Origin: Candidatus Daviesbacteria bacterium RIFCSPHIGHO2_01_FULL_41_45
GTDB lineage: Bacteria; Patescibacteriota; Microgenomatia; Daviesbacterales; UBA10151
Assembly: GCA_001776975.1 (NCBI GenBank)
Contig: MFCS01000029.1
Location: 1-58,045, forward strand
Direction of reading: 5' to 3'
DNA length: 58,045 bases
Numbering within the stretch: position 1 is the stretch's first letter; each line of letters begins with the position of its first letter. The notes under the pieces are model-generated. The model was not told the origin of the DNA. It saw only the letters and a program-made list of their open reading frames with translations, and did not search any database. Shown one piece after another: positions 35,311 through 51,951 of this stretch. The position numbers and the translations under genes were made by a program.

Positions 35311-36191
35311 CCACTAATGTGAGCGACCTCTGATAGTAACATCAGAGAAAAATCCGACTGATATCGGTGAAGTCCTACTTGAAATTCGGGTTAACTTTGG
35401 TTAATCTAGAATCAAGGGAGAATACCGAGGGAAGTCTGCGATGCTTAAGCAGTATACCAACAGCAATTGGCTCAAAGATTATAAGAAGAATCTAGATTTA
35501 TCTAGTATTCAAAGAGATGTTTTGATTGGAACGATTTTAGGAGATGGCTCTTTTAAAATCTCTCGTTCAGGAAAAGCAGCTCAATTACAAATCTGTCATT
35601 CTTTTTCTTCTAAAGACTATGTCTCTTGGAAGAAGCAGATATTTGAAAATTGGGTTTTTGCAGAACCGAGATACCATCAAATAAATAACTCGTTAATTTT
35701 CAGAACGATATCTCACACTTTAATTTTTGAGTACATGAGATTTTTTTATAAAGAGAGGATCAAGATTATTCCACAAAATATTAAGAATATTTTAAAGAGT
35801 AATTTAAGTTTAGCTGTATGGTTCATGGATGATGGTAACGGTTACCTAAAAAGAAATGCATTTAGGATTAGTACCTATGCTTTTGGATTAAATGGCAACC
35901 TATTACTCCAAGAATGCTTAAGTCAGAATTTTGGATTACAAACAAATTTAGTTAGGGATAGTAAAGGATTTCAACTTTATGTCCCGGTTAGAGAGGGTGA
36001 GAAGTTTAAAAAACTTATTTCACCATTTGTAATTCCCTCGATGAAATATAAAATCGAGAATCGCAGCCCCCGTAGAGACTGATATGGAAGGTACCAGATA
36101 TTCTGGAAGTAAACTTCCATTAAACGTCGGCTCCAGTGAATAACTGGATGAAGATATAGTCCATGCCCTCAGTAATGAGCGGGTAAACATG
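35311..36191 (+). mobile_element. Group I intron in 16S rRNA (after the U equivalent to E. coli U1498)
   Basis: It splits AAGTCGT | AACAAGGTA. The 5' exon ends in U and pairs with the internal guide GCGAC (35323-35327), giving a U-G wobble. The intron ends in G. It contains GATGAAGATATAGTC (36147-36161), like the Tetrahymena AAGAUAUAGUC core strand. Confidence 0.85.
35441..36082 (+). CDS. Double-motif LAGLIDADG homing endonuclease (intron-encoded)
   Basis: Motifs LIGTILGDGSF and LAVWFMDDGNGY lie about 100 residues apart. The ORF's stop lies inside the conserved intron block GTAGAGACTGATAT. Confidence 0.9.
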   Translation: MLKQYTNSNWLKDYKKNLDLSSIQRDVLIGTILGDGSFKISRSGKAAQLQICHSFSSKDYVSWKKQIFENWVFAEPRYHQINNSLIFRTISHTLIFEYMRFFYKERIKIIPQNIKNILKSNLSLAVWFMDDGNGYLKRNAFRISTYAFGLNGNLLLQECLSQNFGLQTNLVRDSKGFQLYVPVREGEKFKKLISPFVIPSMKYKIENRSPRRD

Positions 36192-36425
36192 AACAAGGTA
36201 TCCCTACCCGAAGGTGGGGATGGATCACCTCCTTTCTGGAGATTTGATCTAACTGATGGATTCCTGAAATCTTGCTTTGCAAGTAGGCCGAAAGGCCTGC
36301 CGGCAGGCAGGCAGGTAGCCACGGTTACGATCCAGATACCTCTCACGCTTCAACAGCCTCAGCGCAAGCTAGAGATGTTGGGGACAGGTATCAAGAAGTT
36401 TGAAGCTCTTCTTAAAAAAGGCTTC

Positions 36426-36440
36426 CCCACCACTATTCTG
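36426..36440 (+). other. 3' strand of the 16S precursor processing stem
   Basis: Complementary to 33756-33770; lies about 190 nt past the 16S 3' end. Confidence 0.55.
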
Positions 36441-36469
36441 GAATTAATTATCTTTAATTCCAGGTCAGG
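36435..36469 (+). repeat. Direct repeat copy 1 (35 nt) containing a perfect 10-bp hairpin
   Basis: ATTCTGGAATTAATTATCTTTAATTCCAGGTCAGG. CTGGAATTAA and TTAATTCCAG are exact reverse complements. Confidence 0.7.
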
Positions 36470-36488
36470 ACTGGCGTAGCCATGTTCT

Positions 36489-36523
36489 ATTTTGGAATTA
36501 ATTATCTTTAATTACAGATCAGG
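36489..36523 (+). repeat. Direct repeat copy 2 (35 nt, 3 mismatches to copy 1)
   Basis: ATTTTGGAATTAATTATCTTTAATTACAGATCAGG. The hairpin is degraded by the substitutions. Confidence 0.7.
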
Positions 36524-49140: not shown

Positions 49141-49590
49141 TCCGGATTTCAGAGTTCGGATGTCAGATTTCGGATATGTTAAAATGAATTTAATGCAGGA
49201 TGTAAGTGATCTACACGTCTATCAGCACTCAATGAGATTGTTAGATGAGATAAATCGTTTTCTAGATCAGTTACCAAGTAAGGATAGAGATCTCTTTCAT
49301 CAAATATTGAGAGCCGCTAGATCTATTCCCGCCTTACTTGCTGAAGGATTTGCTAAAAAGTCATCACAAAAGGACTTTCGTCACTTTGTGATCATGGCGA
49401 TGGGTTCTTCAGATGAGGTCATTACCCATCTAAGAATAGCAAAGGCAGATCCTCGGCTAATTGAGGAATACAAAGTTGTATCTAAGCAACTTAATAGATT
49501 AGCTCAGTCTCTTAATTCTGAAGCTAAACAGTTGCTGGATCAAATAATTCATAAACAATCTGATTTCTGATATCTGATTTCCGATATCCG
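49141..49590 (+). other. Intervening sequence (IVS) replacing the tip of 23S helix 45
   Basis: It lies between CTACGGATCAAG and GGCTTGGTGGTAGGGGAGCGTTC, where E. coli has only about 20 nt. The flanks TCCGGAT... and ...ATCCGGG are complementary. Confidence 0.8.
49160..49570 (+). CDS. Four-helix-bundle protein of the 23S rRNA intervening-sequence protein family
   Basis: DLHVYQHSMRLLDEINRFLDQLP...ILRAARSIPALLAEGFAKKS...MAMGSSDEVITHL matches the family pattern. An alternative start is ATG 49184. Confidence 0.8.
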   Translation: MSDFGYVKMNLMQDVSDLHVYQHSMRLLDEINRFLDQLPSKDRDLFHQILRAARSIPALLAEGFAKKSSQKDFRHFVIMAMGSSDEVITHLRIAKADPRLIEEYKVVSKQLNRLAQSLNSEAKQLLDQIIHKQSDF

Positions 49591-50371
49591 GGCTTGGTGG
49601 TAGGGGAGCGTTCAAAATGGAGCGAAGCTGTGCTGTGAGGCGTGGTGGACTGTTTTGAAGTGAGAATGCCGGTATGAGTAGCGTTTCAGACTGAGAATGT
49701 CTGACGCCGAATGCCCAAGGTTTCGCAAGCAATGTTCGTCAGCTTGCGGTTAATCGGTTACTAAGGCGAGGCCAAATGGCGTAGCCGATGAATGATCCGT
49801 TAAAATTCGGATATTAGTATTGTTTCGTTGAAATCTACGGGAGGACAAAATGGGAATATCCAGTCCGCCAATGGCGGATCCAAGTAACAAGTTAGTGGGG
49901 GTTATGAAAATCAGCCCCAAAATCGCGCAAGCGACTTAAACACGTTTGAAGCGAGTTACAAGTGCGATAAAAAGTGGAAAGTTTCTGTTTTCAAGAAAAG
50001 CCTCGTAGATAGAAACAATTTAGCCGTACCATAAACCGACACAGGTGGGCGAGTTGAGTATACAAAGGCGATCGAGTGAATCATCCTTAAGGAACTCGGC
50101 AACAAAAGCTGGACGTAAGTTAGCAAGATGTCCTGCCTTAAATCGCAAGATTTAGGGCCGCAGTGAATGACCCTGAGCGACTGTTTATCAAAAACACAGC
50201 TCCCTGCTAAAGTGAAAACTGATGTATAGGGGGTGACACCTGCCCAGTGCCAGTAATTTAACATTTTCTTTGACCTGATGGAGCAATCTTGAGGTGAGGA
50301 GAGGATCTAAGATCTGGTGAACGGCAGCAGTAACTATAACTGTTCTATGGTAGCGAAGTTCCTTGTCTGGT

Positions 50372-51096
50372 GAATGAATTCGCCAGTTCCAGAAGTGATT
50401 CTGGAAAAAATTCGGCTAATATCGGTGGAATCCTAAAAAAGTATTTACTTTTGTCTTATATTCGGGTAATCTGATTATAGGAGGGACAATACCGAGGGAA
50501 GTCGGGAAGTACCAATTGGTATAACCTTGACCCTGTAACGACTGATATATGAGGTACCAGATAATCTGGAGAAAAACTCATATTATACGCCGACGCTTAA
50601 TGAATAATTTAGGATGGTATCTTTCTGGTTTTGCTGACGGAGAAGGTAGTTTTTGTGTCTATTTCTCGCCTCGAAGTCGAATGACTTTGGGTTGGGAGGT
50701 TAGACCAAGCTTTTCTGTCGGGCAGAACACTTCAAGGCCTGAAGTTTTGAATCTATTTCTGCAATATTTTAAGTGTGGAAGTTTACGAGCTAATAAGGGA
50801 GATAATACTGTAAAATTTGAAATTCGCAGTTTAAGACCGTTATTAGATATTGTGATTCCTCATTTTAGAAAATATCCAGTACTTTCAAGCAAAGCTAAGG
50901 AATTTGAGAAGTTTGTTGCTATTTGTAACTTACTTTCCCAAAGTTCCCACTTAACTGAAGCTGGATTTAAGAAAATTGTTGATTTAGCATTTGAAATGAA
51001 TGGTTTAGGAGCAAGAAGATATAGCAAACAATACATTCTAGATAATCTTAAGATGAAGATATAGTCTGATCCTACTAGTAATAGTGGAGAAATATG
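50372..51096 (+). mobile_element. Group I intron in 23S rRNA at the site equivalent to E. coli U1951 (L1951)
   Basis: It splits GTCTGGT | GAGTTCAGACC (E. coli GUCGGGU|AAGUUCCGACC). The guide GCCAG (50382-50386) pairs with the exon end CTGGT, giving a U-G wobble. The intron ends in G. The core block GATGAAGATATAGTC lies at 51052-51066. The 3' boundary is good to about 3 nt. Confidence 0.8.
50549..51064 (+). CDS. Single-motif LAGLIDADG homing endonuclease (I-CreI/I-CeuI-like size), intron-encoded
   Basis: LGWYLSGFADGEGSF motif. The likely true start is ATG 50600 (MNNLGWYL...), since the first 17 codons overlap a conserved intron block. The stop TAG lies inside GATATAGTC. Confidence 0.85.
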   Translation: MRYQIIWRKTHIIRRRLMNNLGWYLSGFADGEGSFCVYFSPRSRMTLGWEVRPSFSVGQNTSRPEVLNLFLQYFKCGSLRANKGDNTVKFEIRSLRPLLDIVIPHFRKYPVLSSKAKEFEKFVAICNLLSQSSHLTEAGFKKIVDLAFEMNGLGARRYSKQYILDNLKMKI

Positions 51097-51619
51097 GAGT
51101 TCAGACCCGCACGAAAGGTAGAACGACTTAGGGACTGTCTTGAGGGTGAACTCGGCGAAATTGCAGTGGCTGTGAAGATGCGGCCTTCCCATACTTGGAC
51201 AAAAAGACCCCGTGGAGCTTTACTGTAGCTTGTCCCTGATTTGAAAATTTGATTGTGTAGCGTAGGAGGGAGCTTCGGCGACGATGAAACACCTCTCTTT
51301 CGAATTTTTAAGTCTCACCTCGACCCATAATCTGGGAGAGGGACAAGGCCTGGCGGGCAGTTTGACTGGGGCGGTCGCCTCCAAAAAAGTAACGGAGGCG
51401 TGCAAAGGTTGACTTAGGACGGATGGCAATCGTCCATAAAGCGCAAAAGTAAATAGTCAGCTTGACTGCGAGACCTACAAGTCGAGCAGGTGCGAAAGCA
51501 GGCTTTAGTGATCCTGTGTCAGCTCAAGGGAGCGGCACGGCTTATCGGATAAAAGCTACCCCGGGGATAACAGGCTAGTGATACCCAACAGTCCACAAGG
51601 ACGGTATCGTTCGGCACCT

Positions 51620-51951
51620 TAATATATCGGGGTGCGGTGGGAGTAATCCCATTAACCTGTTATACAAAATATATAATTTGTCTTTTTGAAAAAATACTAG
51701 CTAAAATCGGTGAACTCCTATCTAAATCAATAGAGGACAACACCGAGGGAATCCTTCGATTCTGAGAATCTCAGGACGAGGACCCGTAACGACTTTTCCG
51801 CCTTTGGCGGGAGGATTCAAGGTACCGAAGGTTACTTCGGATTAAAACTTGGATAAAAGGCTAGCTCCTTCATTTGAGCGGGACTTGTCCCGAACAAGCG
51901 AAGGATGAAGGTATAGTCTAAGCTGCAGGTAACTGTAGATTTTTATGACAG
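51620..51951 (+). mobile_element. ORF-less group I intron in 23S rRNA at the site equivalent to E. coli U2500 (L2500)
   Basis: It splits GGCACCT | CGATGTCGGCTC exactly. The guide GGGTGC (51630-51635) pairs with the exon end GCACCT, giving a U-G wobble. The intron ends in G. The core block GATGAAGGTATAGTC lies at 51904-51918. Confidence 0.85.

Follow-up and report, generated by a model that had tools for sequence, protein, structure and literature searches.

Does the presence of three related introns in the ribosomal RNA (rRNA) genes of one bacterium record the spread of a single element within its genome, or does each intron belong to a lineage that is tied to its own site? The question is raised by a stretch of 58,045 nt from Candidatus Daviesbacteria bacterium RIFCSPHIGHO2_01_FULL_41_45 (contig MFCS01000029.1; this whole stretch is called the window here), in which the 16S rRNA is interrupted after U1498 (35311-36191, 881 nt; the exons break at 35310/36192) and the 23S rRNA after U1951 (50372-51096, 725 nt; 50371/51097) and after U2500 (51620-51951, 332 nt; 51619/51952), as placed by alignment to the E. 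coli rrn genes. The 23S site numbers follow the standard 2904-nt scheme, the E. coli copy that was aligned being 1 nt shorter; the three insertions are named S1498, L1951 and L2500 after their sites. A preliminary description of this DNA saw in them one intron lineage that had colonized three rRNA sites in a single genome and had there gained or lost two different endonuclease genes. The comparison with other genomes leads to another answer, to which we give a probability of about 0.85: the three introns are members of one family resembling subgroup IA3, each of them in a separate, older, site-tied lineage that is shared with other genomes.

All three insertions are recognizable as group I introns, predicted to be self-splicing, as had been proposed: they have in common a P1 helix with a U.G pair, P2, the helices P3-P9, further helices between P7 and P3', and a terminal G. 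A U closes each 5' exon and a G closes each intron (three of three). The five blocks of sequence first noticed in them recur in identical order, and a regular-expression scan of both strands finds them together in the three insertions only. Block 1 starts at 35362, 50420 and 51705; block 2 at 35421, 50488 and 51739; block 3 at 36072, 50535 and 51786, with a stray 9-mer at 45997; block 4 (AGGTACC, a 7-mer that is present elsewhere in the window too) at 36089, 50552 and 51820; and block 5 at 36147, 51052 and 51904. These are the positions given before, except for block 4 of the L2500 intron, which had been placed at 51830. Blocks 1, 2 and 5 have three matches each, on the + strand and in the insertions only, where 100 dinucleotide shuffles of the window lead one to expect 0.00-0.01. 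Block 1 corresponds to J3/4-P4-J4/5 (the classical P element), block 2 to P4'-P6 (Q), block 3 to J6/7-P7 (R) and block 5 to J8/7-P7' (S); block 4 lies in an extra P7.1/P7.2 element, which has no classical name. Blocks 1, 2, 3 and 5 are thus identifiable as P, Q, R and S in a variant typical of the IA3-like family.

Relatives were collected from three sources and are cited by serial handles, with the site appended where needed. Loci around eight endonuclease homologues gave L002-L010 and L130-L133; a scan of 596 Gb of genomes with the S block GATGAAGRTATAGTC gave at least 119 stretches (L011-L129), of which only the roughly 40 in rRNA genes were used, the remaining two thirds or so, outside rRNA genes and without the other core blocks, being what we take to be chance 15-mers; and a metagenome scan with a P4'-P6 word specific to the L2500 intron gave 17 stretches (L134-L150). 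Insertions were mapped against the spliced rRNAs of the window and against E. coli. The cores that were scored are the ORF-free P3-P9 regions (ORF, open reading frame), compared in gap-tolerant pairwise alignments in which long loops and ORFs are cheaply skipped, with shuffled controls at 29-46; P1-P2 was omitted, since the guide sequence is constrained by the site. A MAFFT alignment of the three window cores served for inspection only, its loops being out of structural register.

Among the collected introns, the best non-self match of each window intron is an intron at the same site elsewhere, with 94%, 87% and 81% core identity for S1498, L1951 and L2500, respectively. The S1498 core scores 146 against L132_S1498 and 131 against L006_S1498, as opposed to 80 and 65 against the L1951 and L2500 introns of the window; the L1951 core scores 120 against L130_L1951 and 111 against L002_L1951, as opposed to 79 and 62 against S1498 and L2500 of the window (it also reaches 98 and 97 with the L2657 and L2511 introns of L130); and the L2500 core scores 84, 77 and 73 against L002, L003 and L013, as opposed to 67 and 62 against S1498 and L1951. 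A score of 95 between the L2500 core and the metagenomic L143 covers a wider flanking stretch rather than a delimited intron and is only roughly comparable. Over the 99 ungapped columns, identity to same-site introns is 94, 86 and 80% for S1498, 87 and 84% for L1951, and 81, 75 and 73% for L2500; within the window it is 79% between S1498 and L1951, 71% between L1951 and L2500, and 69% between S1498 and L2500. The same-site relatives (L132, L006, L009 and L007 for S1498; L130 and L002 for L1951; L003, L013, L002, L137, L143 and L148 for L2500) also share peripheral parts, namely the P3 sequence, the P5 and P6 extensions, and P9. The metagenome stretches contain five L2500 introns, of which the four fully delimited ones are ORF-less and 336-421 nt long; a closer L2500 relative, or one with an ORF, was sought among the 17 stretches, and none scored above 95. 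In neighbour-joining bootstraps of the cores, the S1498 intron joins L006 in 232 of 300 replicates, the L1951 intron joins L002 in 153 of 300, and the L2500 intron joins L003 and L013 in 182 of 300.

Intron similarity roughly tracks the similarity of the rRNA exons across the sampled loci. L132, with an S1498 core 94% identical to that of the window, has 16S exons 84-96% identical; L130, with an L1951 core at 87%, has 23S exons at 82-97%; L006, with an S1498 core at 86%, has 16S exons at 74-100% across pieces (78-83% over the long ones); and L009, with an S1498 core at 80%, has 16S exons at 74-83%. This parallel would fit a history of mainly vertical inheritance, or one of transfer among close relatives. 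Presence is patchy: L130 has introns at L1943, L1951, L2450, L2511, L2593 and L2657, and none at L2500; L007 and L009 have introns at S1498 and L2500, and none at L1951.

Several points weigh against this reading. L002-L010, L130 and L132 were fetched through endonuclease homologues, so that same-site introns were guaranteed; the sample is biased, the genome scan covering only the matches listed (at least 119 stretches); and family membership was defined by our own regular expressions, with loose anchors. The label IA3 derives from one bridging sequence and from the architecture, not from scores to the GISSD subgroup models, and all three introns fall below the gathering score of the general Rfam group I model, RF00028. 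Bootstrap support for the same-site groups does not exceed a moderate level (51-77%), since the columns that can be aligned without gaps number no more than 99 and are highly conserved. Lastly, the identity between S1498 and L1951 of the window exceeds the values for these two sites across genomes by about 2-5 points, and a small contribution from exchange within the genome to their likeness is conceivable.

An added source of likeness, compatible with separate site-tied lineages, would be mosaic evolution, in which introns resident in the same genome swap peripheral modules such as the one around block 4; we regard this as possible, though on balance doubtful. In the S1498 and L1951 introns, GGUACC is part of a single element right after P7, composed of a stem, GUA, a hairpin, an A-rich strand and the returning stem; in L2500 it sits in the second of two hairpins, and it is absent from the other L2500 introns L003, L013, L137, L143 and L148. 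The module occurs at eight sites in the collected sample, yet only in related hosts (the window, L002, L006, L130 and L132). In the ORF-less L2500 intron of L002 (L002:3113-3428), P3, P6 and P7 are of the L2500 type, but a single P7.1 module, almost identical to the L1951 module of the window (ATATATGAGGTACCAGATATTCTGGACAAAAACTCATATTATACG), replaces the two hairpins; this intron may be a chimera. In L006 (Levybacteria GCA_016199085.1), the S1400 intron (1669-2299) and the S1498 intron (2377-3265) share an identical 54-nt run, CCCGTAGAGACTCATATGGAAGGTACCGGATATTCCGGAATTAAACTTCCATTA, which spans P7 and the P7.1 module and suggests a recent exchange or duplication between introns of that genome. 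Within the window, however, the S1498 and L1951 modules differ in both stems and loops, each resembling those of its same-site relatives, and a module this short, probably kept under tight structural constraint, may also have arisen by convergence.

Far less probable is that a single intron copy spread to the three sites in this genome and gained or lost its two LAGLIDADG genes afterwards, as the preliminary description had it. The core blocks and a GGUACC-containing element are indeed common to all three introns; the 79% identity of S1498 and L1951 is high for introns at different sites (97th percentile, the two pairs with L2500 being at the 45th and 60th); and GACTGATAT follows P7 in both S1498 and L1951, same-site relatives differing from it at one base. 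Against this, introns at the same site in other genomes are much closer to each of the three (81-94%, as against 69-79% within the window), and an exclusive clade of the window trio, or of any two of its members, appears in 0 of 200 neighbour-joining bootstraps. The S1498-L1951 resemblance is not peculiar to this genome either: S1498 and L1951 introns of different genomes score 85, 85 and 81 against each other, as compared with 80 within the window, and have 72-77% core identity, so that the two lineages are sister-like within the family and their closeness appears as a property of the lineages, not of this genome. Excess similarity from recent exchange was looked for in the window, and none was found beyond 2-5 core positions. 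More generally, introns at different sites are no more alike when they share a genome (mean core identity 67.8%) than when they do not (69.0%), and the endonuclease family and its loop position are common to same-site introns in distant classes of the Candidate Phyla Radiation (CPR). Radiation within the genome is thus not sustained, since each intron belongs to an older site-tied lineage common to other genomes.

The weakest explanation, that the likeness is only the universal group I consensus of P, Q, R and S, shared by introns of different subgroups without specific ancestry, can be set aside as barely credible: blocks 1, 2, 3 and 5 do fall exactly at the classical positions, and block 5 is similar to the Rfam consensus UgAAGAUAUAGUC, but all three introns have P4 as UCGGUG/(U/C)ACCGA, where the Rfam consensus has GCGGG/CCGC, and all three have GGGAA after P4', CCC(C/U)GUA before P7, helices between P7 and P3', and a P9 capped by GUAA, features that are absent from the introns of other types L130_L1943, L132_L1931 and L009_L1931, whose scores against the window cores (29-41) are at the level of shuffled sequence.

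As these other introns, which reside in the same genes, score no better than shuffled sequence, the resemblance is specific to a subgroup and not generic. The outcome named beforehand as a refutation, a generic consensus joining introns of different subgroups, is not what is seen, and the claim that the three are sequence-related stands: with the same core variant and the same architecture, they present themselves as homologous members of one IA3-like subgroup. The name is given because one collected intron, L102 (ASMP01000002.1:130592-130914), is intron IA3.5, with an E-value of 7e-33 to the GISSD IA3 model (Nawrocki et al., 2018; PMC6125680), and because extra P7.1/P7.2 helices of IA type are present in the window introns (36086-36118, 50549-50581 and 51797-51854). 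L102 shows the four core blocks too, and over the 99 columns its identity to the window introns is 67-73%.

The family extends well beyond the window. At least 45 collected introns from at least 20 genomes have the same four core blocks, which are ATA(T/A)CGGTGRA in J3/4-P4, AATACCG(A/T)GGGAAG in P4'-P6, CCCCGTAnnGACT in P6'-J6/7-P7 and GATGAAGRTATAGTC in J8/7-P7'; the 80% consensus of the 45 is AA..CT.ATA.CGGTG.A, G..AATACCG.GGGAAG, CCCCGTA..GACT and GATGAAG.TATAGTC. They occupy at least 12 rRNA sites (S1000-79, S1085, S1400, S1498, L1951, L2450, L2473, L2500, L2511, L2585/2593), out of a larger set in the collected loci that comprises insertions at S788, S1000-79, S1085, S1400, S1498, L1917, L1923, L1931, L1943, L1951, L2262, L2450, L2473, L2500, L2511, L2585/2593, L2605 and L2655-60, with up to five or six insertions per 23S gene. 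The L2500 site is occupied in at least 16 other collected loci. Hosts of the family are CPR bacteria, DPANN archaea (L026, L029, L102) and metagenome-assembled genomes (MAGs) labelled Gammaproteobacteria (L035, L050, L074, L081); since archaeal 23S genes and these MAGs carry the core blocks alike, the family crosses domains, if the bin labels are taken as given. For the L1951 intron of the gammaproteobacterial MAG L050, identity to its counterpart in the window is 44% in the endonuclease and 71% in the core. At two positions that the search patterns left free, pairing is maintained in all 45 introns: the first pair of P4 is standard throughout (28 T-A, 17 A-T), as is the fifth pair of P7 (19 G-C, 20 A-T, 6 T-A). 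P3 shows 18 different 5-mers, with a complementary P3' in 40 of 45, and P8 forms at least five of six pairs in 35 of 45. This covariation supports the predicted conservation of the core helices P3-P9.

Several collected loci show further diversity at these sites. A second S1498 lineage (L004:649-1372 and L035) has its ORF in L8 (a LAGLIDADG_3 gene in L004) and is without P7.1; because it differs from the lineage of the window, one site can host different sublineages of the family. At L2500 there are at least three sublineages, told apart by the fifth pair of P7 (T-A, A-T or G-C). L132:20261-20469 is a 209-nt ORF-less L1951 intron, also without P7.1 (ACACG follows P7), whose core agrees at 80-85% with the S1498 introns of L004 and L035 but at only 63-71% with other L1951 introns; it would be a second, independent link between S1498 and L1951. 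In L130 (110-1088), only 8 nt of exon (TGTCTGGT) lie between the L1951 intron and an L1943 intron of a different type. None of the six insertions in the 23S gene of L130 is at L2500, even though its intron at L1951 is, of those collected, the nearest to the L1951 intron of the window.

The helices of the three window introns, all on the + strand, are as follows.

S1498 intron, + strand: internal guide sequence GCGAC 35323-35327; P2 35328-35347; P3 35354-35358/36126-36130; P4 35364-35369/35423-35428; P6a, flanking the ORF, 35434-35442/36060-36066; P7 36075-36080/36158-36162; P7.1 module 36086-36118; P8 36132-36148; P9 36166-36183; terminal G 36191.
L1951 intron, + strand: internal guide sequence GCCAG 50382-50386; P2 50387-50406; P3 50412-50416/50589-50593; P4 50422-50427/50490-50495; P6 50496-50533; P7 50538-50543/51063-51067; P7.1 module 50549-50581; P8, flanking the ORF, 50596-50600/51048-51052; P9 51072-51087; terminal G 51096.
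L2500 intron, + strand: P10 51626-51629; internal guide sequence 51630-51635; P2 51638-51651; P2.1 51664-51681; P3 51697-51701/51860-51864; P4 51707-51712/51741-51746; P6 51747-51785; P7 51789-51794/51915-51919; P7.1 51797-51812; P7.2, which holds GGTACC, 51814-51854; P8 51866-51905; P9 51923-51938; terminal G 51951.

The guide of each intron pairs with the last 5-6 bases of the exon, forming P1 as GUCGU/GCGAC in S1498, CUGGU/GCCAG in L1951 and GCACCU/GGGUGC in L2500, with the U.G pair at the splice site. Minimum free energy (MFE) folds give the same P2-P9 layout in all three, the S1498 fold recovering P2, P4, P5, P6, P7.1 and P8. P9 is capped by the GUAA loop in each, one or two extra hairpins lie between P7 and P3', and P2.1 is found in L2500 alone of the three. 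The Rfam model Intron_gpI (RF00028, gathering score 50) matches L2500 with 48.9 bits, L1951 with 35.3 and 18.8 bits in two pieces, and S1498 with 22.6 bits, two of the matches being broken up because the ORFs split them; with every match short of that score, all three introns escape standard annotation. For the same reason this general model, which is weak for some subgroups (PMC6125680), was tried and set aside as a means of classification or of subgroup assignment.

Two of the introns carry genes for putative homing endonucleases.

35441-36082, + strand: homing endonuclease gene of the S1498 intron, in the P6 loop; 213 aa, with two LAGLIDADG motifs (LIGTILGDGSF, LAVWFMDDGNG).
50600-51064, + strand: homing endonuclease gene of the L1951 intron, in the P8 loop; 154 aa from the ATG at 50600, with a single motif (LSGFADGEGSF).

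Mapping bears out the placement of these ORFs: between blocks 2 and 3 in S1498, where the flanking P6 stem is GUCUGCGAU/AUCGCAG and the stop codon overlaps the R block and P7; between blocks 4 and 5 in L1951, where the stop codon lies in J8/7; and absent from L2500, in which no ORF of at least 60 aa was found (51620-51951). The distinction between a double-motif and a single-motif enzyme likewise agrees with the Pfam assignments. The S1498 protein matches LAGLIDADG_2 over the full profile (2.1e-34, 119 bits, above the curated cut-off) and aligns over its full length with the monomeric two-motif I-SceI (E-value 1e-13; best match 6x1j, 1.8e-18); it has 139 homologues, the named ones from CPR bacteria. 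The L1951 protein matches LAGLIDADG_1 (6.3e-22, 78.8 bits, above the curated cut-off). Its ORF as listed (50549-51064, 171 aa) starts inside P7.1; because most homologues are about 151-168 aa long and span about 85-90% of the listed ORF, the true start is probably the ATG at 50600. This protein matches each half of I-OnuI-type enzymes (E-value 1e-37), so that it probably acts as a homodimer, and it also matches the single-domain homodimers I-CeuI and I-MsoI. The homologues of either endonuclease number well over 100, and nearly all that are named come from CPR/Patescibacteria (Levy-, Davies-, Woese-, Ames- and Woykebacteria); I-ShaI, a related enzyme of CPR bacteria, has been shown to be active (PMC11270868).

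Compared separately, as had been advised, the endonucleases cluster by site. The S1498 protein shares 53-77% identity with its counterparts in other S1498 introns and 24-38% with LAGLIDADG_2 proteins of L2262, L2450, L2473, L2500, L2511 and S1085 introns; the L1951 protein is 44-83% identical to proteins of other L1951 introns and at most 42% identical to the rest. Their position follows the site as well: in all seven ORF-bearing L1951 introns collected, the ORF is in L8, between R and S; in the S1498 introns of the lineage of the window it is in L6, between Q and R; and where L2500 introns bear an ORF, it is a LAGLIDADG_2 gene in L6. Seven L2500 family members from genome loci (among the matches listed) and the four delimited metagenomic ones are ORF-less like that of the window. 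With endonucleases clustering by site, and in the same loop in same-site introns, the ORF gains and the ORF-less state of L2500 are thus old and lineage-specific. The independent acquisition of the two genes is borne out in so far as they were gained separately; it did not take place in this genome, being old and common to the site lineages, and the same holds for the ORF-less state of the L2500 intron, which other L2500 introns share.

The S1498 lineage is characterized by a double-motif endonuclease akin to I-SceI in the P6 loop, that of L1951 by a single-motif, presumably homodimeric LAGLIDADG enzyme in the P8 loop, and the L2500 intron of the window represents an ORF-less lineage with P2.1 and two hairpins after P7. 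In each intron, the internal guide would pair with the last 5-6 exon bases, with U.G at the splice site, and two guanosine-dependent transesterifications would excise the intron to restore an intact rRNA. By cleaving alleles of their own site that lack the intron, the endonucleases would hold each lineage in place; the spread to new sites, via reverse splicing or retargeting of the endonuclease, would lie deep in the history of the family and not in this genome.

The host genes have the following extents.

33886-35310, + strand: 16S rRNA exon 1 (Rfam SSU match; exon mapping to E. coli 16S), whose last base is U1498.
36192-36237, + strand: 16S rRNA exon 2 (BLAST to E. coli 16S 1499-1541), which begins at A1499 with AACAAGG...GGATCACCTCCTTTCT.
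47893-52337, + strand: 23S rRNA gene (Rfam LSU match; BLAST to E. coli 23S), with two introns and one intervening sequence (IVS).
49160-49570, + strand: ORF for a 23S_rRNA_IVP protein of 136 aa, a four-helix bundle (PF05635, 2.6e-21).

The Rfam SSU match runs to 35344, 34 nt into the S1498 intron, and misses the true 3' exon at 36192-36237, which holds the anti-Shine-Dalgarno CCUCC; routine annotation would thus place the 3' end of the 16S rRNA wrongly, inside the intron. The further insertion in the 23S gene, of about 480 nt (about 49115-49598) in the helix-45 region (E. coli about 1143-1185), has the marks of a classical intervening sequence, excised without ligation, and not of an intron. 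About 11.6 kb, with genes for a sigma factor, PGK, GAPDH and other proteins, separates the unlinked 16S and 23S genes; just past the 16S gene, on the opposite strand, come tRNA-Cys and tRNA-Ile (36734-36897), and tRNA-Ala is found upstream of the 23S gene (47645-47718). No 5S rRNA was found within the window.

Insertions in CPR rRNA genes were reportedly first noted by Brown et al. in 2015. In a later survey, they are given as present in 48% of 16S and 82% of 23S genes, with 35% of the 16S and 45% of the 23S insertions classed as group I by Rfam intron models, and sites are described as recurrent, with LAGLIDADG_1 dominant at 23S 1952, among others, and LAGLIDADG_2 and _3 at 16IS5 and 16IS10 (Tsurumaki et al., 2024, J Bacteriol; PMC11270868). 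The window agrees in the type of host, the fixed rRNA positions, the presence of ORF-bearing and ORF-less forms at one site, and the 23S_rRNA_IVP protein in an IVS; its LAGLIDADG_1 gene after 23S 1951 matches their site 1952. We infer that its S1498 site, with LAGLIDADG_2, is their 16IS10, the 3'-most 16S site, whose coordinate is absent from the text at hand; the LAGLIDADG_3 gene at S1498 in L004 fits the mixture of LAGLIDADG_2 and _3 described there. The survey, in that part, differs in classifying by Rfam and Pfam, without relationships between intron RNAs across sites, where the present comparison finds a shared IA3-like core. IA3 introns of archaea are known at LSU 2500 and 2593 (Nawrocki, Jones & Eddy, 2018, NAR; PMC6125680); IA3.5 (L102) has the four blocks of the window introns, and LSU/2500 is among the sites listed, but the hosts there are archaea and the site is mostly L2593, and it is by core blocks and architecture that the window introns are likened to them. 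The L1951 intron in the 23S gene of Coxiella burnetii is 720 nt long, with a LAGLIDADG ORF of 157 aa (Haugen et al., 2007; PMC1995217); site, near-equal length (725 nt here) and the single-motif ORF of the same size agree with the L1951 intron of the window, but the host phylum is another, and the two are likened by description. Among the enzymes, the S1498 protein would be the counterpart of I-SceI from the yeast mitochondrial omega intron, to which it is alike over its full length, and the L1951 protein that of I-OnuI/I-CreI-type LAGLIDADG enzymes, each half of the I-OnuI type being matched; in both cases the target sites differ.

Several group I introns in one rRNA gene are also present in the chloroplast LSU of Chlamydomonas. 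The 16S gene of the giant sulfur bacterium Thiomargarita has IA3, ID and IC1 introns, as far as it is described in a secondary account (Salman et al., 2012, as cited in PMC4853749). Such organellar and bacterial rRNA genes resemble those of the window in having several group I introns per gene and site-tied lineages; Thiomargarita has an IA3 intron in its 16S gene as well, though three subgroups there contrast with the one subgroup of the window trio, going by that account.

With these precedents in CPR bacteria, archaea, Coxiella and Thiomargarita, the introns of the window are of already known kinds. The resemblance among them is the consensus of the IA3-like family, and a shared core is what a subgroup is expected to mean; the finding itself is one more CPR genome with group I introns and LAGLIDADG genes of described types, an ordinary example that matters little. 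That many site lineages of CPR bacteria appear to share an IA3-like core is not stated in the cited literature, to the extent of the texts available, and is a modest addition. A wider reading, which we hold only tentatively, is that one IA3-like clade radiated over a dozen or more sites in both rRNA genes of CPR bacteria by repeated site switching and by module swaps between co-resident introns, the trio of the window being a snapshot of recombination among introns that is still going on; the link between S1498 and L1951 in two separate sublineages, the identical module in L006 and the graft in L002 are what point in this direction. If module exchange and site switching are borne out in a large data set, these introns would offer a tractable system for how introns and their endonucleases gain new target sites.

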